Shown: piece after piece, positions 2,200-62,527 of the stretch
Layout: each line of letters begins with the position of its first letter
Position numbering within the stretch: position 1 is the first letter of the stretch
Source of the DNA: Clostridia bacterium
GTDB taxonomy: Bacteria > Bacillota > Clostridia > TANB77 > CAG-508
Reading direction: 5' to 3'
Assembly: GCA_045643205.1 (NCBI GenBank)
Contig: JAZUKI010000004.1
Coordinates: 8,331-72,330, forward strand
Length of the DNA: 64,000 nucleotides
Made by a program: the position numbers and the translations under genes
The notes under the pieces: model-generated
What the model saw: the letters and a program-made list of their open reading frames with translations, nothing else
Told to the model about the DNA's origin: nothing
The model's database searches: none

Positions 2200-4119
2200 A
2201 TGTTAATTAATGCAATACTTATAATTGCTATAGTTGGTGTAGCTTTTTATCTTATACAAAGAAAGATAAAATCGAATCAATTAAAAGCAGAAAACGAAGG
2301 TAAAATTAACGACGTTCAAGTTGATGATAAAACATATACTTTAGATATGATGATTAAATTCGTTAAGAAAAGAATTGACGAAATAACAAAGGTTAACTTA
2401 TATGACCTTGGTTTATCTGAAGAAGAACTTAAGAGAAGAAAAGATAAAAAGTATGAATTAAAGAAAGCTTTAAAAGGCTGTACATATGGCGATGTTAATG
2501 ACAAGAAATATGTAAAGGAATTAATTTTTGATATTTTATCTAAAGAGTATGGAGTTGATGAAACTAATGTATCAAAGGCAATACCATTTGATATTCCTTC
2601 ATTATTAACACCACAAGATAAATATGACATCATTATTTATATGTATCAAAAAGAATTTGGCTATGAAGCATGGAATACTATAATGAAGAAATACAACTTA
2701 GCCACTTTAAAATTCGTAGATGGTGATACAAAACCTTGTTATGTTGTTACTCCAGAAGAAATTAGTGATATTTATATAAAAGAAAACTACACGTTATCAT
2801 TCCAAGATAAATTAATGGTTGTAGTTCAAAGAATATATCAATTATATAAAGGATATAGTTCAATCGACGAACTAAGAGATCAAAATATTGATGGTATTTC
2901 AGGTGGTGTATCTGGTTTACCAGAATCATTCTTAAGTCAGGTTGCTCAAACTGACGCAAACTATTTAACAAAAGTTATGGATCATAAAGTACCACGTTCT
3001 TGTGATTCTATTTGGATCATGTATCATGGTATTTCAATCCGTATGGCATTCTTATCATTTGGAAATGAATCAGAATTAAAGAGAGTTTGCCAAAATATTT
3101 ATAAATATAATAACCCAGGCCAGTTATCTGATGCCAATGGTTATAAGATTAATGAAATGAAAGATGGTTCCCGTGTCGTTGTTGTAAGACCAAGTTTCTC
3201 AGAATCATGGGGATTCTTCGTAAGAAAATTCGATGTTAAGAGAGCTACTCTTGATCAATTAATCAAATGTGATGGAAAAGATGAAGCTATTGCTTTATTA
3301 ACATACTTAGTAAAAGGTGCCAGAATTATATCACTTACTGGTGAGCAGGGTTGTGGTAAAACAACTATGTTAATGGCAATGATTGAAAATATTTATGAAA
3401 CAATGAACATTCGTGTTCAGGAAGTTGCATTCGAGTTACACTTAAGAAAAATTTACCCAACACGTAACATTTTATCTTTCCGTGAAACAGAAACAATTTC
3501 TGGACAAGAAGGTTTGGACGTTCAAAAGAAGACTGACGGTTCTGTTAATATTATCGGTGAGGTTGCAACTGACGAGGTTGCTTCTTGGATGATTCAAGCT
3601 GCACAAGTTGCATCTAAATTTACATTATTTACTCACCATGCTAAAACATTCCCAGACTTAATTACAGCTCTTCGTAACTCAATGTTAAGAACTGGTGTTT
3701 TCAACAACGAATTAGTTGCTGAAAAACAAGTTGTTTCAGTATTAAACTTTGATATTCACTTAGTTAAGGATTTCAGAGGAAATCGTTATATTGAGAGAGT
3801 TACAGAATGTGTACCTGTTGAAGACTTCAACAACTATACATTCGATCAAGATAAAGAAAAAACAATTGAAGGTAAATTTGAAAAATTTGCTGACAATGCT
3901 ACAAGATTCTTTACAAAACAAACAAACAAAGAAATATTTACATATAGAAATATTATGGAATATCAAGATGGAGGATATGTTTTAACTAATAGAATTACAG
4001 ATGCAAACTTACGTGGAATGGTTACAAACATGGACGACAATGACTCTGAAGGATTTAGAGAATTTGCATATAAATATTGGGGCATTAAACTAAATGATAG
4101 AGGAGAAATTATAAAATAA
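2200..4119 (+). CDS. CpaF/TadA-family (PulE/VirB11 superfamily) secretion ATPase with an N-terminal transmembrane anchor and about a 200-aa N-terminal extension
   Basis: 639 aa. Walker A LTGEQGCGKTTMLMAM, an Asp box, Walker B and His box LFTHHAKTFPD are typical of type II/IV secretion NTPases. Residues about 1-20 (LINAILIIAIVGVAFYLI) are hydrophobic. Confidence 0.75.
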   Translation: MLINAILIIAIVGVAFYLIQRKIKSNQLKAENEGKINDVQVDDKTYTLDMMIKFVKKRIDEITKVNLYDLGLSEEELKRRKDKKYELKKALKGCTYGDVNDKKYVKELIFDILSKEYGVDETNVSKAIPFDIPSLLTPQDKYDIIIYMYQKEFGYEAWNTIMKKYNLATLKFVDGDTKPCYVVTPEEISDIYIKENYTLSFQDKLMVVVQRIYQLYKGYSSIDELRDQNIDGISGGVSGLPESFLSQVAQTDANYLTKVMDHKVPRSCDSIWIMYHGISIRMAFLSFGNESELKRVCQNIYKYNNPGQLSDANGYKINEMKDGSRVVVVRPSFSESWGFFVRKFDVKRATLDQLIKCDGKDEAIALLTYLVKGARIISLTGEQGCGKTTMLMAMIENIYETMNIRVQEVAFELHLRKIYPTRNILSFRETETISGQEGLDVQKKTDGSVNIIGEVATDEVASWMIQAAQVASKFTLFTHHAKTFPDLITALRNSMLRTGVFNNELVAEKQVVSVLNFDIHLVKDFRGNRYIERVTECVPVEDFNNYTFDQDKEKTIEGKFEKFADNATRFFTKQTNKEIFTYRNIMEYQDGGYVLTNRITDANLRGMVTNMDDNDSEGFREFAYKYWGIKLNDRGEIIK

Positions 4120-9899: not shown

Positions 9900-9934
9900 A
9901 TTAGTATTGATTAAATTTTTAGGAGGATAAGAGA

Positions 9935-10459
9935 ATGAATGATACAGTAATGTCAATCGTTGCAATCTTTTTGGCAGCAATTTTAATGTTTATATTTCCA
10001 CTAATGTCTACTGCAGATAGAAGTGATGATATAGCACAACAAGCTGTACAAACACAAACAACTGAGTTTGTTGATAATATTAGAACTACTGGAAAAATAA
10101 CTCAAGATAGTTATAATAGTTTTGCAACAACTATTGCTGGAACTGGTAATTCTTTTGATATAGAGCTTGAAGTTCAAATACTAGATGATAATGCTAGAAA
10201 GAAAACAGCTCAAGCATCAGCATCTAAAGTTGGTGAAAATAGTTATTATAGTGAGTATACATCACAAATCCAAGAACATATGGATAAAAATGGTGGAACT
10301 TATATTTTAAAAGAAGGTGATATTGTATCTTGTACAGTTAGAAATACAAGCCAAACAATGTCTCAAATGTTAAAGAATTTCTTTTACCAAGTAACAGGTA
10401 ATAATTCATATAATATTTCTGGACAACACTCAGGAATTGTTAATGTTAATGGAAATTAA
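9935..10459 (+). CDS. Membrane-anchored pilin/pseudopilin-like protein P6
   Basis: 174 aa. MNDTVMSIVAIFLAAILMFIFPLM is a TM segment followed by a polar domain. Own promoter and followed by a terminator. Confidence 0.4.
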   Translation: MNDTVMSIVAIFLAAILMFIFPLMSTADRSDDIAQQAVQTQTTEFVDNIRTTGKITQDSYNSFATTIAGTGNSFDIELEVQILDDNARKKTAQASASKVGENSYYSEYTSQIQEHMDKNGGTYILKEGDIVSCTVRNTSQTMSQMLKNFFYQVTGNNSYNISGQHSGIVNVNGN

Positions 10460-10488
10460 TAATTAAATAAAAATGTATAAATGAAAAA

Positions 10489-10519
10489 TAAACTTAAGAC
10501 AACTTGAGTTTATTTTTTT
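10489..10519 (+). terminator. Rho-independent terminator closing the pilin gene block
   Basis: TAAACTTAAG-acaa-CTTGAGTTTA forms a 10-bp stem with one G-U pair, followed by TTTTTTT. Confidence 0.65.
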
Positions 10520-10564
10520 GTTTGTATATAATTATTTTCATAAAATAGGTGAAGGAATTGATAA

Positions 10565-11581
10565 ATGAAGGATTCAAAAATTTCTTTTAAGTTAATTGAT
10601 TTTATAATTCTTAATATAGCAATAGTTGCAATAATTGCAGTTATTGTTTTTTGTAATGTAAATAAATTACATAATAATTCAAATCCTAGCAGTATTTCAA
10701 AAGAAATTATTCAAGAAGACTTAAAAAAATCAATAGAAAATAGATATTACTATAATCAATTAGATGCTAATGGTCAAAAAATGTACAATACATTTTTAAG
10801 TAACACTGAAAAATTTAGAGCAGGAAACGAATACATATCAATTGATATAAATGAAGAAAGTGCAGGGGATAGTTTTCAAGCAGCATGGGATGCATTTTCT
10901 GTAGATAGACCAGAGTATTTTTACATAGATACTAATAAACTTTCACTATTAACTAATGTTAAAACTAACATTTTTAATAATAAAGAATATGAATATAAGC
11001 TTCAACCTAAGAACGGAGAAACATATTTTGAAAAAGAATTTCCAACAAAAGAGGATGTTGATTTTGCAAATTCACAATTAGAAACAATTACTAAATCAAT
11101 AATAGATCAAGCAAATAGCAAATCAACTAGATATGAGAAAGTAAAGTTTATACATGACTATCTAGTAGATAACATTTCTTATTCAAAAGATGAAAATGAA
11201 GCTAGTGCTGATACAATATATGGAGCATTGATTAATAAAGTTTGTGTTTGCGAAGGATATGCAAAATCATTCAAATATTTATTAGATAAATTAGAAATAC
11301 CATGTATTATTGTTTTTGGAAACGGAACCAACTCAGAGGGAAAACAAGAATATCATTCTTGGAACTATGTGAAAATGGAAGATGATAAATGGTATGCTGT
11401 TGATGTTACATGGGATGATCCTATTGTAGTTGGCGGAGGAAAAGTAACAACAGCAATTAAGTATAAATATTTTTTAGTTGGAACAGAAATTAATTCTAAT
11501 CATACTTTAGAATCAGATATCTCAGGAACAGGTCAAAATTTTAAATATCCTGAGTTAAGTTTTAGTAACTATAGTAAATAA
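10565..11581 (+). CDS. Membrane-anchored transglutaminase-like cysteine protease-fold protein
   Basis: 338 aa. N-terminal TM segment FIILNIAIVAIIAVIVF. Cys-His-Asp triad context CVCEGYAKSF ... EYHSWNYV ... WYAVDVTWDD matches the transglutaminase-like core. Confidence 0.7.
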   Translation: MKDSKISFKLIDFIILNIAIVAIIAVIVFCNVNKLHNNSNPSSISKEIIQEDLKKSIENRYYYNQLDANGQKMYNTFLSNTEKFRAGNEYISIDINEESAGDSFQAAWDAFSVDRPEYFYIDTNKLSLLTNVKTNIFNNKEYEYKLQPKNGETYFEKEFPTKEDVDFANSQLETITKSIIDQANSKSTRYEKVKFIHDYLVDNISYSKDENEASADTIYGALINKVCVCEGYAKSFKYLLDKLEIPCIIVFGNGTNSEGKQEYHSWNYVKMEDDKWYAVDVTWDDPIVVGGGKVTTAIKYKYFLVGTEINSNHTLESDISGTGQNFKYPELSFSNYSK

Positions 11582-11886: not shown

Positions 11887-13512
11887 TTCTTCTGATTGAG
11901 ATTCAGTTACATTGTTTGATGGAGTAGAGCTAAATTGTTCTAATGAATCAAAGTTCTCTATTTTTGTTTCTTCAATTGATGAACATGTTTCACAGTCATT
12001 TTCTTGAGTACAAGCACATTTATTTGTACATCCATTTGCACATTCGTTTTCACAATGATCTTCACATTCATTTTCGCAGTGATCTTCACAATGACATTCA
12101 AAAGTAGAAGAGCATTCAGCAGAGTCTTGTTCACTTTTAACAAGTTCATGTCCAACTTTAGTGATTGAACCAGCACCTTGTGTAATGATGATATCATCTG
12201 GTTTTGCATTTCTTCTAACAAAATCAACAATGTTTTCTAAATCTTTAATATAGTATGCTTTTCTACCAAGAGCTTCGATTTTATCAATAATATCTTTTGA
12301 AGATACTTCGTTATTATCAATTTCTCTAGCAGCATATATATCAGTAACAATAATGTTATCAAAGTTTGTTAAAACATTAGCAAAGTCATCTAGCAATGCT
12401 TTTGTTCTACTAAATGTATGTGGTTGGAAAAGAATCCATGAATGATTATATTTTCTCTTTTTAACTGCATTTGCAACAGCTAAAATTTCTGTAGGATGAT
12501 GTCCATAATCATCAAAAACATTTGCACCATTAACTTTTCCTAAATATTGAAAACGTCTTTCAGCACCACCATATGTTTTTAATGTATTTTTTACTGAGTT
12601 TTTATCAACTTCAAATTGACTACAAACAGCGATACAAGCTAATGCATCATAAATATTATGTTCTCCAGGAACACCTAGTTTGAATGTTTTATAAAAAGTA
12701 TTGTTATGATAAACATCAAATGAAGCACATCCGTTTACATCATAAGAAATATTTTTTGCTACAAAGTTTGCATTATTTGATTTTATACTAAATGAAATAC
12801 TCTTTGCTTTAGTATGAGAAGATAGTCCATGACAATTCTCATCATCAGCATTGTAAACCAATATTCCATCATCAGGTAATAATTTAACGTATTCTACGAA
12901 AGCTGCTTTAATATTGTCCATTGTTTTATAGTAATCTAAGTGATCATTATCAATATTTAAGATAACTTCAACTTTAGGGAAGAAATCTAGGAAACTTGCA
13001 GAATATTCGCAAGCTTCAATGATAAAATATTCACTTTCACCAACTCTATAATTTCCACCAATTGAATCTAAAACAGCGCCAATTTGAATTGTTGGATCTT
13101 TTTTGGCATCTAAGAAACATTGAGCAATCATTGAAGTAGTAGTCGATTTTCCATGAGTTCCAGAAACACAAATAGAATTTCTGAAAACTCTAGTAAGTTC
13201 ACCCATGATTTCTTTTCTTTCAATTGTAGGAATACCTAATTCTTTAGCTCTAACTAATTCAGGATCTTCTGGTTTTATAGCTGCAGAATAAATAACTAAA
13301 TCAGATCTATCAACATTCATAGGATTATGACCTATATAAACTGGGATATCATTTTCAATTAATTGATTTGTAATGTCAGATTCGGTTGAATCAGAGCCAG
13401 TTACATTAAAATCCCACTTTTTTAAAATTTCGGCAATACCACTCATAGATGAACCACCGATACCTATCATATGTATATTTTTATATTGTTTTAGTTCTTG
13501 TAAATTTGGCAT
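11671..13512 (-). CDS. murC: UDP-N-acetylmuramate--L-alanine ligase MurC with an unusual C-terminal extension of about 150 aa (Cys/His/Glu-rich, then Asn/Tyr/His-rich)
   Basis: N-terminus MPNLQELKQYKNIHMIGIGGSSMSGIAEIL (the MurC GIGG nucleotide motif). Start chosen at ATG 13510-13512, preceded by GGAGAT. The MurC domain ends near ...ITKVGHELVK, and the frame stays open for about 150 more aa. Confidence 0.85.
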   Translation of the reverse strand: MPNLQELKQYKNIHMIGIGGSSMSGIAEILKKWDFNVTGSDSTESDITNQLIENDIPVYIGHNPMNVDRSDLVIYSAAIKPEDPELVRAKELGIPTIERKEIMGELTRVFRNSICVSGTHGKSTTTSMIAQCFLDAKKDPTIQIGAVLDSIGGNYRVGESEYFIIEACEYSASFLDFFPKVEVILNIDNDHLDYYKTMDNIKAAFVEYVKLLPDDGILVYNADDENCHGLSSHTKAKSISFSIKSNNANFVAKNISYDVNGCASFDVYHNNTFYKTFKLGVPGEHNIYDALACIAVCSQFEVDKNSVKNTLKTYGGAERRFQYLGKVNGANVFDDYGHHPTEILAVANAVKKRKYNHSWILFQPHTFSRTKALLDDFANVLTNFDNIIVTDIYAAREIDNNEVSSKDIIDKIEALGRKAYYIKDLENIVDFVRRNAKPDDIIITQGAGSITKVGHELVKSEQDSAECSSTFECHCEDHCENECEDHCENECANGCTNKCACTQENDCETCSSIEETKIENFDSLEQFSSTPSNNVTESQSEESVENNNNNNNNNNTKNSNYHYHNNYNNYHGHNNYKNNYYNHNNHGYNNYNHNNHGYNNYNNSNNNNNSDNK

Positions 13513-55020: not shown

Positions 55021-56073
55021 ATGATTAACAACGAAAATGGAAATAATAAAAAATCAATTTCACTTGTAAGTATTATAATTATTATACTTGCAGGTTTGTT
55101 AATCATAGGATTACTAGTACTAGATATTAATAATTCTTTAACTAATATTAATAAAATTAGTTTAGCTCAACAAGAAATAATTGCTACTAAAGAAGATAAT
55201 GAAGAACAAAATAAAAAACAAAACGAAAATGAAAAACAAAACGAAAATTCTAAAAAAGAGAATGAAAGTAAAAATCAAAAAACGCAGCAACCTAATGAAC
55301 AAAAACAAGTAGAACTACAAAATAAAATACAAGAACAAGAAAAAAAGCAAGAACAAAATAATCCAGAACCAATAGAAGCAAAAAAACAAGAAGAGCAACA
55401 AGTAAAACCTGAAACAACAGAAACAAAGCAACCTACAAAGCCTGCACAAAGCAGTGGAGGAAAGATATTTTTAACTTTTGATGATGGTCCAAGTGATGAA
55501 TACACAGGAAAAATTCTAGACATTTTAAAAAAATATAATGTAAAAGCAACTTTCTTTGTAACAGGAAGAGGTAGCGATGCATTAATAAAAAGAGAATATG
55601 ATGAAGGGCATAGTATAGGACTACATAGTTATACTCATACATATAAAACTGTTTACGAATCAGAAAAAGCATATTTTAATGATATTGCAAAAGTAGATCA
55701 ACGAGTTTTTAATATAACAGGACAACATACAAAAATTGTTAGATTTCCTGGAGGAGCATCTAATACAGTAAGCAAATTTAATCCTGGAATAATGACTAGA
55801 TTAGCAAAACAAGTAAAGGAAAAAGGATATAAATACTGGGATTGGAATGTTTCATCAGGAGATGCAGGAGAAACAAAAGATCCAGATAAGATATTTGAAA
55901 ACGTAAAAAATGGAGTAACTAGCACAAAAAGAAATATTGTTTTACTTCATGATATACACGAATATACAGCTAATTCAATTGAAAAAATAATAGTTTGGGC
56001 TAAAGAAAACAACTATCAATTTTATAGAATAGAAGAAAGTATGGATCCAGTACAACATAAAATCGCTAATTAA
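55021..56073 (+). CDS. Membrane-anchored polysaccharide deacetylase (NodB/CE4 family) with Lys/Gln/Glu-rich linker
   Basis: 350 aa. N-terminal TM segment, a low-complexity KQNENEKQ linker, then FLTFDDGPSDEYT ... HSYTH ... LLHD (CE4 motifs). Confidence 0.8.
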   Translation: MINNENGNNKKSISLVSIIIIILAGLLIIGLLVLDINNSLTNINKISLAQQEIIATKEDNEEQNKKQNENEKQNENSKKENESKNQKTQQPNEQKQVELQNKIQEQEKKQEQNNPEPIEAKKQEEQQVKPETTETKQPTKPAQSSGGKIFLTFDDGPSDEYTGKILDILKKYNVKATFFVTGRGSDALIKREYDEGHSIGLHSYTHTYKTVYESEKAYFNDIAKVDQRVFNITGQHTKIVRFPGGASNTVSKFNPGIMTRLAKQVKEKGYKYWDWNVSSGDAGETKDPDKIFENVKNGVTSTKRNIVLLHDIHEYTANSIEKIIVWAKENNYQFYRIEESMDPVQHKIAN

Positions 56074-56150
56074 AATAACAAAAATTACCAATTTATAAAA
56101 ATAAAACAAAAGATATAAAAATGAAATAACAGAAATAAATACACTATTAC

Positions 56151-56197
56151 AGATTTGTAACACCCTTATTAAAAAAAGGTTACAAATCTTTTTTTTG
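56151..56197 (+). terminator. Rho-independent terminator
   Basis: AGATTTGTAAC ... GTTACAAATCT is an 11-bp stem followed by TTTTTTTT. Confidence 0.7.
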
Positions 56198-56265
56198 CTT
56201 TTAAAAATTAGCAAATAATAGTAAAATTATAAGTATCAAAATTCAAAAGAAAGAGGAAAAAACTT

Positions 56266-57315
56266 ATGAAAAGAAAAACTATTATTTTATTACTTATCGT
56301 TTTAATGTTTGCATCAGTATTAGGCGGAACAAGTTTCGCAGCTAATTACATTCCACCAACAAATCCAACTGGTGACACAACTGTAACAGTAACAAAAACA
56401 CTAGAAGGAATTACAAACCCTGTTTCAGTTACATTTGGATATCAAGTAACAGCAGCTGAAGGAAATCCAGCAGCAGTTTCAGGAACACTTCCACTTACAG
56501 CTAGTATTGTATTTAACAATGCTGCACCAAATGAAGATGATGAAGTTATTGGAACAACAGAAGTTGACTTTGCAGGATTAAGTTTCCCAAAAGTTGGAGA
56601 TTACAAATTCATTATTTCTGAAGTTTCTACTACAAATTCAACACTATATCCAATAAGCAATGACAAATATTATTTATATGTTTCTGTTAGAAATGGAGAA
56701 GGCGATACATTAGTTGCAACAGTAGCACAACAAGGAATTCTTACAACAGATGAAACTCAAACAAAGGTTGACGTTGTTTATCCATCACCTGTTAACTTAA
56801 CATACATTACAGTAGAAAAAAGAGTAACAGGAAATATGGCTGACAAAACAGAATACTTTAAATTCAAAGTAAACATCGAAGGTGGAAACACAGGAGATAC
56901 ATATACAATTATTGGACAAGATACAAATGTTACATACAACGGATCAACATTTGCAGCACCTACAACATATACAGTAGGACAAGATAACTATGTATACTTA
57001 CAACATGGACAAACAGCAACTATTGGTTTGTATAAGAATTCAATTCCACAAATCCCAGTAAATGTAAAATACTCATTTGTTGAGCAAGATGCATCAACTT
57101 ACGAAACATATGTTGATGGAAGCACAACAAAATCAAAAACATCAGCTGAAAAGACAACAGTTCTTACAGCAGCTAACAACAAAACAACATTCGTAAACAA
57201 TAAAGAAGAAGCAACATTTACAGGAGTAGTTGTTACTATAGCTCCTTATGTAGCAGTAGTTGCAATTGCAGCACTTGGAATTGTTGTTGTTAAAAAATCA
57301 AAAAGAAGAGACTAA
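56266..57315 (+). CDS. Secreted pilin-like / cell-wall-sorted surface protein (candidate backbone pilin)
   Basis: 349 aa. Signal peptide (SFA/AN) and a Thr/Val-rich beta-type sequence. The C-terminus ATFTG + hydrophobic VVVTIAPYVAVVAIAALGIVVV + KKSKRRD resembles a sorting signal with a non-canonical motif. Confidence 0.5.
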   Translation: MKRKTIILLLIVLMFASVLGGTSFAANYIPPTNPTGDTTVTVTKTLEGITNPVSVTFGYQVTAAEGNPAAVSGTLPLTASIVFNNAAPNEDDEVIGTTEVDFAGLSFPKVGDYKFIISEVSTTNSTLYPISNDKYYLYVSVRNGEGDTLVATVAQQGILTTDETQTKVDVVYPSPVNLTYITVEKRVTGNMADKTEYFKFKVNIEGGNTGDTYTIIGQDTNVTYNGSTFAAPTTYTVGQDNYVYLQHGQTATIGLYKNSIPQIPVNVKYSFVEQDASTYETYVDGSTTKSKTSAEKTTVLTAANNKTTFVNNKEEATFTGVVVTIAPYVAVVAIAALGIVVVKKSKRRD

Positions 57316-57362
57316 TACAAGAATAAAATAAAAACAAAAGAAAATAACAAGGAAGGAATAAT

Positions 57363-57698
57363 ATGGAGAAGCCACTTGGAGTAGATATAGGAAAAATTAA
57401 ATTCAAAAGAAAATTATTTGGTGGATTTAATGAAATAGATACTTATATGAAACTAAAAGAAATTAATAATAAGTATTATGAATCTATTGAAATTGCTTCA
57501 ATGGAACACCAGATTATTCTTGAAAAAAGAGAAAAAGAAATCAAAGAGTTGAAACAACAACTTGAAGAGAAAGATAAAGAAATTGAAAGGCTAAATAACA
57601 ATGTTAGAAATTTAGAAAACATTGTTAGCCAAAGTCAAATTTATGAACAAATGAAAAACATTCAAGAATTAAATTCAAATAAAGATACAAAGGATTGA
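57363..57698 (+). CDS. Hypothetical coiled-coil protein
   Basis: 111 aa. Heptad-like EKREKEIKELKQQLEEKDKEIERL. RBS AAGGAAGGA. Confidence 0.4.
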   Translation: MEKPLGVDIGKIKFKRKLFGGFNEIDTYMKLKEINNKYYESIEIASMEHQIILEKREKEIKELKQQLEEKDKEIERLNNNVRNLENIVSQSQIYEQMKNIQELNSNKDTKD

Positions 57699-57700
57699 TT

Positions 57701-58273
57701 ATGCAACTTTTATTAGACGATAAAATTGTTAATAAAAGAATATTGGACCAACAATTAATTGATAAAAAAATTGAGAAGGCAAAATCTGTAAGAGATATAA
57801 AAGCTCTACTTATAAAAATAATAGTTGTTTTATTAGTTTTATACGGATTACATTTCTTTATATTTCAATTAGTTAGACATACTGGTCTTTCTATGAGCCC
57901 CGCTATAAATGATGGAGATCTATTATTTGTGTACAAATTAGATCGAAATTTTAAAGAAGGAGACATAGTATCGGTTAATCATGAAGGAAGACAATTAATT
58001 TTAAGAATAGTTGCAACAGGAGGTCAAACTGTAAATATTACTGATGATGGTAATATGTATGTTGATGAACATAACGAAGCACAAAAAGTTTTTTATGATA
58101 CGAAACCTGTTAGAAATTCTGGAATTAATTATCCATATAAAGTTGAAGAAGGAAAAGTTTTTCTATGTGGTGATTATAGAATAGATAGCTATGATTCTAG
58201 AATATTTGGGGCAGTTTCTTTAAATGAAATAGAAGGAAAGGTAATCACAACCTTAAAAGTAAGAAATATATAG
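57701..58273 (+). CDS. Signal peptidase I (S26) homologue, probably catalytically impaired (SipA/LepA-like pilus assembly factor)
   Basis: N-terminal TM segment. Box B GLSMSPAINDGDLL has the Ser. The box D position reads LRIVATGGQTV, with Leu where the general-base Lys normally is. Box E GDYRIDSYDSRIFG is conserved. Start set at ATG 57701 (RBS AAGGA, 6-nt spacing). Confidence 0.65.
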   Translation: MQLLLDDKIVNKRILDQQLIDKKIEKAKSVRDIKALLIKIIVVLLVLYGLHFFIFQLVRHTGLSMSPAINDGDLLFVYKLDRNFKEGDIVSVNHEGRQLILRIVATGGQTVNITDDGNMYVDEHNEAQKVFYDTKPVRNSGINYPYKVEEGKVFLCGDYRIDSYDSRIFGAVSLNEIEGKVITTLKVRNI

Positions 58274-58284
58274 GAGTATAAGAA

Positions 58285-58881
58285 ATGCAGAAAGGCAAAG
58301 TAATAATTTTTAATCGCATATTAATAATTGCAATGATAATTATTGCTAGCAATTTCTGCATTTTTTCTTATGCTCAAGAGCAATACAATCATGAAATTAA
58401 GGTTAATGTTACCAGCAAAGATGACATAGAATGTACATATTCTTTATACACAGAAGAAGACAAAAACAATCCAGATAAAATAGAAAATCTTCCAAAAAGT
58501 TTAGATGTTTTGCTAGATGGATATTCAACTGAAAAAGTATTTGAATTAAATGATTTGAAATTTACAAAACCAGGTGACTACATATTTTATATTTATGAAG
58601 GCGCGAGCGAGATACCAGAAGTATTTCCAGTTTCACCACAAAAATATGGCATTGGAATACATGTAGATTATCTACTAAATTATAATATACATATACAAGT
58701 AATTGATTGTACAACAGGAGAAAAAACAGATGGAGTTGTATTTAAAAATGAAGGACAGCTAATTGATTTTCCTAAGACAGGAGTAAAGTTAGATACCGAT
58801 CCATTCGTTTTTGTTACAGCAGGTTCAATTTTATTTTTAGCAATTGTAATTGCTATTATACCTAAAAGGAAAAAAGAATGA
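58285..58881 (+). CDS. Small secreted pilin-like protein with FPKTG sorting signal (candidate minor/basal pilin)
   Basis: 198 aa. Signal peptide (SYA/QEQ). C-terminus DFPKTGVKLDTDPFVFVTAGSILFLAIVIAIIPKRKKE is xPxTG + TM + positive tail. Confidence 0.55.
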   Translation: MQKGKVIIFNRILIIAMIIIASNFCIFSYAQEQYNHEIKVNVTSKDDIECTYSLYTEEDKNNPDKIENLPKSLDVLLDGYSTEKVFELNDLKFTKPGDYIFYIYEGASEIPEVFPVSPQKYGIGIHVDYLLNYNIHIQVIDCTTGEKTDGVVFKNEGQLIDFPKTGVKLDTDPFVFVTAGSILFLAIVIAIIPKRKKE

Positions 58882-59630
58882 TTATAAGAAAAGCAACTAA
58901 GATAGTTGATAAAATAATTAATTTTGTAATCATTATTCTATTATTAGTTTCAATAAGCTATGGAGCTTATGCAATTATTGATGGAGTAAATGTTCAGAAT
59001 GGTGCTACTTTATCAGAAGATATTAAAAAAAATGCACCATCTAATAAGTTTGCTCAATTACCAATTGATGAACTAAGAAAAATAAATTCTGATATATGTG
59101 CATGGTTAAATATTGATGATACATTGATGGATTATCCAATAACACAATATACAGACAATGATTATTATTTAAATAGAAATTATAAAAAGGAATTTGCTGC
59201 AGCTGGTACTGTATTTCTTGATTATAGAAACAATGTTGACTTTGATGATGACTATAATGTTGTTTATGGTCATAACATGAAGGGAAGTGTAATGTTTGGA
59301 GGAATAAAGAAATATGAAGATAAAGAATATTTCGATGCTCATTCAACAGGAACATTATTTACAGCTAAATGTAACTATAAATTAAATGTACTATTTTATG
59401 ATCGTATAAGTGCTTATGAATCAACTGTATACAATGTAACTCATTACAAAAATGGATGTAATGAAAATTTATTTAATTTTTTTAAAACACACGCTATTAC
59501 ACAAGGCAATATAGATAAATATGATGGATCAAAAATACTTGTTCTATCAACATGTACTACAAATCAAAACGAAAGAGTATTATTAGTATGCACTCTTTCA
59601 AAATTAGATGAAGACACCAATGAAGAATAA
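58878..59630 (+). CDS. Class B sortase
   Basis: 250 aa. N-terminal TM anchor. The long N-terminal segment with DYPITQ, VYGHNM (His) and LVLSTCT (Cys) is characteristic of SrtB-type enzymes. Confidence 0.8.
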   Translation: MIIRKATKIVDKIINFVIIILLLVSISYGAYAIIDGVNVQNGATLSEDIKKNAPSNKFAQLPIDELRKINSDICAWLNIDDTLMDYPITQYTDNDYYLNRNYKKEFAAAGTVFLDYRNNVDFDDDYNVVYGHNMKGSVMFGGIKKYEDKEYFDAHSTGTLFTAKCNYKLNVLFYDRISAYESTVYNVTHYKNGCNENLFNFFKTHAITQGNIDKYDGSKILVLSTCTTNQNERVLLVCTLSKLDEDTNEE

Positions 59631-59643
59631 TTAGGAGAAAAAC

Positions 59644-61833
59644 TTGAGAAGTAAAATATTTTTAATTTTAAATATGTTAATTACTTTAATCATTGTTTTA
59701 ATCATTACTTGTTTAGGTAATGATTGTTTAGCATATTCAAAATTAGAAATATTTGAATCTTCTAAAGTAGCTGAAGCTTATCAAAGTGGAAAAAAATATC
59801 TTTTCAGAATTAAACAAAATGATGGAACATATAGTTATTATGAACGCGCTGAAGATTTCCAAGCATGGCAATATCCACCTATTGAAGCAAATCCATCTAA
59901 TTATTACGATGAATTAACCATAGAATTTTTACAACCAGAATGCCAATTAACATCATCAATTACTACTTATTATAATTATCCATTACATTTTGTAACAGCA
60001 CCTGTATCTGATTCTGATTATGGATATCAAGGAACACCAGGAACTAGTGCAGTTATAAAAAGAGCTAATAGCTATACCGGAAACATGTTTACAACAACAA
60101 ATGGAGAATTAACGTTTGAAAACTTAGTTATTGATGGTGGCTGGCAAGACAATAGAAAAGGAACAGCAACTGGAGGAGCATTAATTAATAATGATGGAGC
60201 TGCATTAGTTACATTAACAAATGTGATTTTAAGAAATAATAATAATACAACTAGTGAAGGTGGAGCTATAAGAGCATGTGGCGATAATGAATTTGAATTT
60301 AATAATGTTCAAATCACAAATTGCCAAGCAAGCAATGGAGGAGCTATATATTGTACTAATACAACAGCTACTTATAATAACGTAACAGTTACAAATTGTT
60401 GTGCAACAGGATCAGGAAATCAAATAGCAAGTGCTATTTATAGTTCACCATCAGATTATTCATACTATAATAGATTTAATGGATTAACAATAACAGAATG
60501 TTCAGCTATAAATGCGACAGGTTCAGGTTCTGCATTCTTTGTAAATAGCCAAGGAAATTATATTGTTTCTAATACAGCTAGTGGTGCCCCAGGTTTAGTT
60601 ATAACTAATAATTATAGTTCAGGAGATAAAGCTGGTTTTGCAATTGTAAGAGGATCATGGTATCCAAAAATTGAAATATATGGGGACATGGTAATAGATA
60701 ACAACTATACAGGATGTAGCTTTAATAAAAATAATAAAGCAACTAAAAAAGGTGATGAGGTCAACCTTTTCATCCAAAAAGAAGCAGAAGATCAAACATT
60801 AGTTACATTTCACTATAGTCCTACAAGTAATAGTAAAGTAGGTGTTGTAACTGCTTATACTATCCAAGGAACAAGTAATTATAAAACAGAAGATGCAGCT
60901 ACAAAAGAAGCAACAATATTTGCAAATGCAGATAATAGCATAACAGGTTTAGAAAATTACTTTTATGATGGAAACACATCAATTACAGGTAAAACAGATG
61001 GAAGCGGTCATGCTGTTTTTGAAGGAGATTCATCTTTATCACCATTAGGAAGAGTAATTATAAAATATATTGATTACGATGCAGGAACTGCAACAGCTAT
61101 AAATAGTATTTCAGGACCAATCGAGTATGTAAAAGATGGCCAATCAACTACTGAATACAATGTAAATTATACAAATGGAACAACAATAGAAAGAATTGTT
61201 GATCCTAATACAAATATCAATGTATATTTATATTGGATACCAGACGGAGTAACTGTAAGTTATACTTTATCAGCAGGTGCAACCTCAACATTTACAGTTA
61301 ATCAAGCAAATGGCGGTAGAGTATCAGGACAATTAAATCCTAGAGAAACAATAACAATACTTTATGAACATGGAACAAAACCAGCTGGTAACAAAACTTC
61401 AGACTTAACATTTAAACATGTAGACTCAGGAAACTATGCAGATAAAACAAAGAAACATAGTTACAGAGTAGTATATACTTTAAATGGAGAATCGAAAAAT
61501 GAAGTATACGAATTAGCAGATGGCGAAACTCAAAAAATCACAATAGATCAAGGTACAACATATACAATTTCATTAGATGAGACATCAGATGGAAATTATG
61601 GTATTACTTATACAATGCCTAGTGGAAACACAGCTAATCCAACAGTAAGCTCAGCAAATGTATCAATTTCAGGAACTATAGATGCTGATGGAGAAGGTCA
61701 GGTAACATTTACACATACATTGAATAAAGCAGTAGAGACAGGCTTTACAGACAATATTCCAATGATTTGTATGCTTAGTGGAATAGTTATAATATCGCTA
61801 TTATTAGTAAAGAAATTTAAGATAAAAGATTAG
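59644..61833 (+). CDS. Large secreted adhesin-like protein with parallel beta-helix (PbH1-type) repeats and C-terminal sorting-like signal
   Basis: 729 aa. Signal peptide. Repeated N-x-T/GGAI-type segments (TSEGGAIRACGDNEFEFNNVQITNCQASNGGAIYCTN...). C-terminus AVETGFTDNIPMICMLSGIVIISLLLV + KKFKIKD. TTG start after AGGAGA. Confidence 0.5.
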   Translation: MRSKIFLILNMLITLIIVLIITCLGNDCLAYSKLEIFESSKVAEAYQSGKKYLFRIKQNDGTYSYYERAEDFQAWQYPPIEANPSNYYDELTIEFLQPECQLTSSITTYYNYPLHFVTAPVSDSDYGYQGTPGTSAVIKRANSYTGNMFTTTNGELTFENLVIDGGWQDNRKGTATGGALINNDGAALVTLTNVILRNNNNTTSEGGAIRACGDNEFEFNNVQITNCQASNGGAIYCTNTTATYNNVTVTNCCATGSGNQIASAIYSSPSDYSYYNRFNGLTITECSAINATGSGSAFFVNSQGNYIVSNTASGAPGLVITNNYSSGDKAGFAIVRGSWYPKIEIYGDMVIDNNYTGCSFNKNNKATKKGDEVNLFIQKEAEDQTLVTFHYSPTSNSKVGVVTAYTIQGTSNYKTEDAATKEATIFANADNSITGLENYFYDGNTSITGKTDGSGHAVFEGDSSLSPLGRVIIKYIDYDAGTATAINSISGPIEYVKDGQSTTEYNVNYTNGTTIERIVDPNTNINVYLYWIPDGVTVSYTLSAGATSTFTVNQANGGRVSGQLNPRETITILYEHGTKPAGNKTSDLTFKHVDSGNYADKTKKHSYRVVYTLNGESKNEVYELADGETQKITIDQGTTYTISLDETSDGNYGITYTMPSGNTANPTVSSANVSISGTIDADGEGQVTFTHTLNKAVETGFTDNIPMICMLSGIVIISLLLVKKFKIKD

Positions 61834-61924
61834 TGTTAACATAATTGAAAAAAGTAAGCTTTTATGCTAAAATAAGTACGTATTAAACCTTATAATTATA
61901 ATAATATTCTTAGGAGGTTATATT

Positions 61925-62527
61925 ATGGAAAAATATAAGTACACAGAAGAAGATTTAGATCTTGTTTCTTGGGAAAGAGTAGATGAGTTCATTAATAAAA
62001 TTTATAATGAAGTTTCAGAATATCTTACAAAAAACAAATTAAGTATTAAGTATATTGTTCCAATTTTAAGAGGTGGTGGAATTCCAGCAATAAAACTTTC
62101 ACACATGTTTGATGCAGTAAATCTATTACCAATTCAATTAAAATATAATACAAGCAATAATTTAATTGAAAAGAAAATCTCTTTAGATGATTATGAAAAT
62201 ATTAAAGAATTAAATGACAATGAGGTTATATTATTAGTAGAAGGAAATCATTGTACAGGAAGAACTTCTAATATTGCATGTAAGAGCATTAAAGAAAAGT
62301 TTGGCGACAATGTTAAAGTTATATATGTTTCTCTAACAAGAGATTATACATATAAAGATTCAGTTGAAGGAACAGTTTTTGATACATGGGCATTAACAAC
62401 AAATGAATCTAAAAGATTAAGCAAAGAAGAATGCGATAAATTAAATATTAACTATCATAAAGTTTCAGTTTATCCTTGGGAAAATGCCAAGGAAGAACTT
62501 GAGGAATTAAATGAATATGATGCCTAA
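61925..62527 (+). CDS. Phosphoribosyltransferase-fold protein (type I PRTase-like)
   Basis: 200 aa. VPILRGGGIPA and VILLVEGNHCTGRT resemble PRTase PRPP-binding loops. RBS AGGAGG. Confidence 0.45.
   Translation: MEKYKYTEEDLDLVSWERVDEFINKIYNEVSEYLTKNKLSIKYIVPILRGGGIPAIKLSHMFDAVNLLPIQLKYNTSNNLIEKKISLDDYENIKELNDNEVILLVEGNHCTGRTSNIACKSIKEKFGDNVKVIYVSLTRDYTYKDSVEGTVFDTWALTTNESKRLSKEECDKLNINYHKVSVYPWENAKEELEELNEYDA

Follow-up and report, generated by a model that had tools for sequence, protein, structure and literature searches.

Pilus operons that encode pilins, a homologue of the type I signal peptidases (peptidase family S26) and a class B sortase have been documented in streptococci (reviewed in PMC7900414) and in Clostridium perfringens VR-10B (PMC8088525). 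Wherever it was tested, the S26 homologue of these loci is needed for pilus assembly (PMC7900414, PMC8088525). In Streptococcus pyogenes this homologue is SipA/LepA, the assembly factor of the FCT-2/3/4 pili. It has Asp48 and Gly85 at the positions of the Ser-Lys catalytic dyad, shows no peptidase activity and is essential for polymerisation (Young et al. 2014, PMC4049620); its substitutions D61S and D61A leave function unaffected (PMC4049620). The SipA of the S. pneumoniae PI-2 locus, the S. agalactiae PI-2b locus and C. perfringens VR-10B follow the same operon logic of pilins, S26 homologue and class B sortase, as judged from locus content. Here, a SipA-like gene is described from a stretch of 64,000 nucleotides (nt) of a Clostridia bacterium (contig JAZUKI010000004.1), and this whole stretch is referred to below as the window.

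The SipA-like gene most probably encodes a non-proteolytic pilus assembly factor of the SipA/LepA type, a reading to which a probability of about 0.8 is given. It is carried by the homology and fold of the protein, the absence of the general-base lysine, an unconstrained serine column among the homologues and a conserved operon context. By analogy with the streptococcal factor, the protein would have lost peptidase activity and would be required for polymerisation, and it may act by binding or as a scaffold.

Identification of the SipA-like protein

An open reading frame had originally been predicted at 57701-58273 together with three quoted motifs; the reading frame was confirmed, and the motifs are exactly as read. 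The start codon, ATG at 57701, is separated by a 6-nt spacer from an upstream AAGGA; the stop codon is TAG at 58271-58273. The in-frame TTG at 57695, upstream of this ATG, is a less likely start. Box B is GLSMSPAINDGDLL, with Ser64 (in GLSMSP) at nt 57890-57892. Box D is LILRIVATGGQTV, in which Leu101 at nt 58001-58003 is followed by Arg102 (LIL-R-IVATGGQTV). The box E stretch is GDYRIDSYDSRIFG, from Gly157 to Gly170, and its Gly157-Arg167 part corresponds to nt 58169-58201. Boxes B and E had been described as well conserved, and indeed both Ser64 and box E are intact.

The product is predicted to comprise a cytoplasmic helical tail of amino acids (aa) 1-33, a transmembrane anchor at about aa 34-58 (nt 57800-57874) and, outside the cell, the S26 domain. 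The highest hydrophobic window begins at aa 36, and this is the sole N-terminal hydrophobic helix. Such a layout suggests the usual topology of Gram-positive signal peptidases, in which the catalytic-type domain would lie outside the cell. Pfam PF10502 (Peptidase_S26) matched aa 37-182 with an E-value of 6.8e-26 and 91.6 bits (cut-off 22.9), and the equivalog model TIGR02227 (sigpep_I_bact) scored 97.4 bits (cut-off 47). By these profile scores, the assignment of the protein to peptidase family S26 is unambiguous and far beyond chance.

As seen from searches of the PDB, the protein lies closest to the streptococcal pilus factors. By sequence, the top matches were SipA (4n31, 2e-22, 83 bits) and LepA (4k8w, 5.5e-22, 82 bits), and the catalytic signal peptidases matched at 6.3e-06 or weaker, with at most 29 bits. 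An AlphaFold2 model built on 110 homologues (mean pLDDT, the predicted local distance difference test, 96.7) shows a helix at aa 2-54 followed by a beta-domain, which is the S26 fold with an N-terminal anchor, and Foldseek matched it to SipA, SpsB and LepB. The top structural match was again 4n31, with a root-mean-square deviation of 1.3 Å over 138 columns, a TM-score of 0.92-0.96 (normalised to SipA) and 36% identity; LepA was also among the top matches, and S. aureus SpsB and E. coli LepB were found at 4-9 Å. SipA/LepA is, on sequence and model together, the best-supported identification.

The features shared with S. pyogenes SipA/LepA comprise one N-terminal transmembrane anchor, a small cap domain on the S26 core, the lack of the general-base lysine, the DYR variant of box E, a C-terminal ...LxVRxI and a place in one operon with genes for an FctA-type pilin and for a class B sortase. 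The fold and topology of the protein are also those of the catalytic signal peptidases (E. coli LepB, S. aureus SpsB and those of the B. subtilis SipS type), with which it further has in common boxes B and E, the nucleophilic Ser, the Arg that follows the base and the paired Asp and Arg of box E. It differs from them in having Leu for Lys and DYR rather than DNR in box E, and in lying in a pilus operon rather than in a housekeeping context.

Loss of the general base

HMMER was run exhaustively against 1.84 billion representatives and yielded 11,424 matches at E<=1e-3, of which 1,721 remained at 1e-10. The best 150 HMMER matches and 9 proteins of a word-indexed search, the query being among the 9, were aligned with MAFFT (n=158). 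In the HMMER pairwise alignments, Leu101 faces Lys in the signal peptidase of B. anthracis (4nv4, 'yvKRiiGlPGDhi') and in SpsB of S. aureus (4wvh, 'yvKRviGvPGDkv'), and its counterpart in SipA of S. pyogenes (4n31, 'kvGRIAAQAGDEV') is the first Gly. The placement of Leu at the catalytic lysine position had originally been made by eye. It was upheld by these pairwise alignments, by the MAFFT alignment and by structural superposition: profile alignment and structural model both place Leu101 at the base position, and the model superposes on SipA. Neither Lys nor a His of the endoplasmic reticulum or SipW type occupies this position, and Leu101 stands there in every alignment. Sequence, profile and structural comparisons thus agree, and the replacement of the general-base lysine by Leu101 is confirmed.

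Among the 158 aligned sequences, the base column is Lys in only 7, each of which combines it with Ser, Gly and Ser at the remaining signal peptidase positions and so carries canonical motifs; the other 151 lack the lysine. The column is composed of G (50), L (29), A (21), S (16), R (11) and others, with an entropy of 3.0 bits. When the query and its 30 closest cluster representatives are considered, hydrophobic residues predominate (21/31; L 15, F 3, M 2, V 1). The Arg directly after the base position, Arg102 in the query, is invariant (158/158).

A substitute for the lysine was also sought. None of the 151 Lys-less sequences has His at the base column, and the ectodomain contains no conserved alternative Lys or His except Lys180 of the GKV motif, found in 72% of the Lys-less sequences. 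Lys180 was rejected as a substitute general base because GKV also occurs in the true signal peptidases aligned.

As a separate observation on this column, the 11 sequences with Arg (P0079, P0084, P0088, P0104, P0112, P0124, P0128, P0131, P0140, P0145 and P0146) carry an 'RR' pair, as in QVRRVVA, and 7 of these 11 have Ser at the nucleophile column.

These comparisons bear on whether the gene could be the housekeeping signal peptidase of the organism, with the alignment being misleading. It is the sole S26 gene in the 64-kb window, which is the extent covered by this statement, and it passes the NCBIfam threshold for the equivalog 'signal peptidase I'. However, three independent alignments point to Leu101, as does the structural match, the operon is pilus-specific and 64 kb is silent on the remaining genome, so that this explanation is considered extremely improbable. 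Because the TIGR02227 cut-off is passed despite the missing lysine, automated annotation would name the SipA-like protein, and probably most of the Lys-less clade, 'signal peptidase I'.

The retained serine and constraint on the family

The original prediction described the Ser box as intact. Ser64 is present, although little weight can be put on it, since the Ser column is among the more variable ones: its entropy is 2.9 bits against an ectodomain median of 2.36, and the Ser and Lys columns are both above the median. Only 41 of the 151 Lys-less homologues have Ser here, and the non-Ser residues across the 158 sequences include D (27), N (24), G (18), A (15), E (8) and Y (7). Even within the query and its 30 closest cluster representatives, Ser is found in 13/31, with A in 5, G in 3, N in 3 and others. 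Given this variability and the published D61S result in S. pyogenes, the retention of Ser64 is no evidence of catalysis and is probably not meaningful for it. Ser64 was rejected on the same two grounds as a mark of residual activity (PMC4049620).

The loss of the base had been likened to that in S. pyogenes SipA/LepA. Among solved structures, SipA/LepA is indeed the closest relative, and the lysine is gone in both; the likeness holds for the Lys only, because S. pyogenes SipA lost Ser as well as Lys and the SipA-like protein lost Lys alone. Position by position, S. pyogenes SipA and the SipA-like protein have Asp and Ser at the Ser position, Gly and Leu at the Lys position, Asn and Gly at the equivalent of E. 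coli Gly272, and Arg and Ser at the equivalent of E. coli Ser278 (PMC4049620).

Several points weigh against a non-proteolytic SipA-type factor. The protein keeps Ser64, Gly157 (E. coli Gly272) and Ser163 (E. coli Ser278), and of the catalytic apparatus only the Lys was lost. This 'everything but Lys' state is found in 7/151 Lys-less homologues, 6 of them with Leu; we read it as a less-decayed lineage, although it may conceivably mean more. A further basic group may lie close to Ser64. In addition, in vitro work on S. pyogenes SipA itself failed to detect that it binds pilins, pilin peptides or the sortase (PMC7900414). Ser is also associated with Leu at the base column, being found in 13/29 Leu sequences against 28/122 others (Fisher p 0.02); this association is probably due to shared ancestry.

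Those retained residues would also fit an active signal peptidase dedicated to pilins, in which Ser64 would work with a non-canonical base, supplied by another residue, a group of the substrate or a partner protein, and would remove the signal peptides of the operon pilins. Besides Ser64, Gly157 and Ser163, the box E pair Asp165/Arg167 is kept, the score exceeds the TIGR02227 equivalog cut-off, and some SipA homologues of S. suis and S. agalactiae appear to keep an intact dyad (PMC4049620). Set against this, Leu is no base, the Lys-less relatives offer neither His at the column nor a conserved alternative Lys or His, Ser is kept in fewer than half of the closest set, and the protein is far nearer to the inactive SipA than to any active signal peptidase. 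Replacement of the lysine abolishes activity in the signal peptidases of E. coli and B. subtilis. For want of a candidate base and of conservation at the Ser, an active enzyme is improbable.

Apart from the dyad, constraint is readily seen in the alignment. Arg102 and Asp158 are invariant across the family, and Met65, Pro67, Arg160 and Asp165-Ser166-Arg167 are near-invariant. The family is, by this pattern of sequence conservation, under constraint, though not at the catalytic dyad.

Homologous loci

The operon context is also conserved. Lys-less homologues in 7 other loci (L001, L002, L003, L004, L005, L007/L008 and L009/L010) adjoin pilins of the DUF7601/FctA type. A sortase or a sortase-sized open reading frame is present in all of these loci except L001, where the contig breaks off a little way downstream of the S26 gene. 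The gene order of L004 resembles that of S. pyogenes, with adhesin, S26 gene, FctA and sortase. The Ser-Lys homologue P0009 (L006), in contrast, lies among unrelated housekeeping genes. A single-protein scan of genome contigs yielded one distant locus, in a Lachnospiraceae metagenome-assembled genome, at 34% identity.

The Lachnospiraceae locus L003 has two class B sortase paralogues (9912..10664 and 12073..12819), which flank an extra sorting-signal protein and are 35% and 31% identical to the sortase of the window.

The conservation of sequence and neighbourhood also bears on a third alternative, that the gene is a decaying, functionless relic of a signal peptidase that simply persists within the operon. 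The free drift of both catalytic columns among the homologues speaks for such a relic. The reading frame, however, is intact and preceded by a good ribosome-binding site, the confidence of the predicted fold is very high, and non-catalytic positions are invariant or near-invariant across >150 divergent clusters. Synteny with pilin and sortase is kept across distant loci, and the streptococcal homologues are essential for polymerisation. Because the conservation elsewhere in the protein and the synteny are strong, a relic is highly improbable.

Proposed role

As a SipA/LepA-type factor, the protein would be a type I signal peptidase homologue held by its single N-terminal transmembrane helix, with the S26 domain outside the cell. 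With Leu in the place of the general-base Lys, Ser64 would not be activatable, and it is proposed that signal peptides would therefore be left uncleaved. By analogy with S. pyogenes SipA, the class B sortase would depend on the protein in polymerising the backbone pilin of the FctA type, and two other proteins with sorting signals would also be joined into the pilus. The likely mechanism is that a segment of the pilin precursor would be bound or positioned at the membrane.

In itself, the SipA-like protein is an ordinary addition to the known SipA/LepA family and matters little. It extends this class of pseudo-signal peptidases, needed for class B sortase pili of streptococci, to a low-GC genome outside the streptococci. 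The survey of the family, in which 151/158 lack the lysine and both dyad positions drift, lends support to the view that the clade as a whole is non-catalytic, and it shows that a retained Ser is not diagnostic.

A small coiled-coil protein upstream

Directly upstream of the SipA-like gene lies a gene for a 111-aa protein with the N-terminal motif D-I-x-KIKFKRKLFGGF; hydropathy analysis revealed neither a transmembrane segment nor a signal peptide in it. Its family comprises 53 clusters of 54-150 aa, and no Pfam annotation was found for members in these 53 clusters. Members are located directly 5' of an S26-like gene in five loci, namely in the window and in L001 (4060..4545), L003 (7663..7923), L007/L008 (Oribacterium sp. 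KHPX15; L007 6001..6225) and L009/L010 (L009 6001..6444), and no such gene is present upstream of the S26-like gene in L002. Moreover, the hidden Markov model of the family matched the cytoplasmic N-termini of the S26-like proteins P0129 (4.6e-11), P0113 (3.1e-10) and P0137 (6.6e-09), and these three are therefore regarded as fusions of the two genes. By neighbourhood and fusion, a functional link of the coiled-coil protein to the SipA-like protein is well supported.

The family motif, (K/R)F(K/R)K.L.GG(V/Y/F).E..V..K...L...Y followed by a long helix, resembles the N-terminal domain of DivIVA. Sub-threshold matches to the Pfam DivIVA model were obtained for 7/28 family members (best E 2.4e-4), and two members scanned singly reached 13.5-14.3 bits (cut-off 28) over profile positions 5-63. 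The protein of the window gave no match to this model (PF05103), even at E<=10. In hhalign, the family and an approximate sequence of B. subtilis DivIVA were aligned with the motif in register at 2% probability. The top Foldseek match of the AlphaFold2 model was the N-domain of Wag31, with a non-significant E-value of 6.8, and PDB sequence and profile searches with the coiled-coil protein returned generic coiled-coil noise, with no DivIVA or GpsB. A DivIVA-like nature is only a lead.

A full-text literature search, judged by titles and abstracts, found no paper reporting such a coiled-coil gene in sortase-pilus loci, and a description of it for streptococcal FCT loci was not found either. The recurrent partner and the fusions provide a new handle on how SipA-type factors work. 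A tentative possibility, which we regard as rather unlikely, is that the SipA-like and coiled-coil proteins together form a trans-membrane scaffold, in which the weakly DivIVA-like cytoplasmic part would fix the assembly site (for example at poles, septa or curved membrane) and the degenerate peptidase domain outside would keep pilin precursors in place for the class B sortase. If true, this would give SipA-type factors a role as spatial organisers that is not described for the streptococcal systems.

The pilus operon of the window

The genes from 56266 to 61833 are listed in Table 1. They are separated by gaps of at most 47 nt, apart from one overlap. The SipA-like gene had originally been placed between pilin and sortase genes, which is correct, with one small open reading frame (the coiled-coil gene) and one small pilin-like open reading frame interposed.

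Table 1. Genes of the pilus operon in the window
Feature	Length (aa)	Position	Strand	Evidence
Candidate major (backbone) pilin, FctA/T-antigen/Spy0128/PitB type	349	56266..57315	+	Signal peptide; ATFTG-hydrophobic stretch-KKSKRRD C-terminus
Small cytoplasmic coiled-coil protein	111	57363..57698	+	Neighbourhood, fusions, family hidden Markov model
Probable SipA/LepA-like pseudo-signal peptidase	190	57701..58273	+	Open reading frame list, Pfam, PDB matches, AlphaFold2, alignment
Small surface protein	198	58285..58881	+	Signal peptide; FPKTG-hydrophobic stretch-KRKKE C-terminus
Class B sortase	250	58878..59630	+	Start overlaps preceding stop by 4 nt
Large surface protein	729	59644..61833	+	AVETG-hydrophobic stretch-KKFKIKD C-terminus

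The 349-aa candidate backbone pilin matched Pfam DUF7601 with 40 bits (cut-off 27) and, in phmmer, the T-antigen 6n0a at 1.9e-4. The profile of its family matched the S. pyogenes T-antigens, Spy0128 and pneumococcal PitB at 1e-20 to 2e-23. The sortase scored 169.8 bits against TIGR03064 (sortase_srtB; cut-off 153.75) and matched the S. pyogenes pilus sortase Spy0129 (3psq) at 2.2e-31. With this pilin and this sortase, the operon has a gene content of the FCT type.

The 198-aa protein gave a weak match to the pilin isopeptide domain TIGR03786 (E 0.003) and a match to the pilin profile (E 2.4e-4, within the open reading frames of the window), and a PDB sequence search with it returned no match; it may be a minor or basal pilin. 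In the 729-aa protein, residues 597-729, the C-terminal ~130 aa, matched the pilin profile at 1.4e-7, likewise within the open reading frames of the window, and the first ~590 aa gave no Pfam, NCBIfam or PDB match. This N-terminal region contains repeated GGA[IL] motifs (GGALINN, GGAIRAC and GGAIYCT), which we take to resemble the Pmp or parallel beta-helix repeats of autotransporter-like adhesins. The protein is a candidate tip adhesin.

The operon differs from that of S. pyogenes in its gene order, since the SipA-like gene comes after the backbone-type pilin and a small extra open reading frame and the large adhesin-like gene comes last. It differs also in its host, which is non-streptococcal with 26.9% GC (the content of the window), and in its sorting signals. 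The sorting-signal C-termini at 57260..57315, 58820..58881 and 61760..61833 carry ATFTG, FPKTG and AVETG, as against xVPTG in S. pyogenes. The pilins of L002, L003 and L005 have mostly xPTG (IVPTG, ISPTG, VTPTG and LIPTG), near EVPTG/VPPTG of S. pyogenes. As the motifs of the window share just the final TG with the xPTG forms, comparison of these motifs suggests a shifted specificity of the class B sortase of the window.

A promoter and terminator scan of 55900-62100 found fewer promoter-like sites than in shuffled sequences and no terminator-like site. Elsewhere in the window, the 639-aa open reading frame at 2200..4119 (+) falls in a 90%-identity cluster with JGI members named 'pilus assembly protein CpaF' (the ATPase of Tad/Flp-type pili), and on account of this clustering the window may also carry parts of a second, unrelated pilus system.

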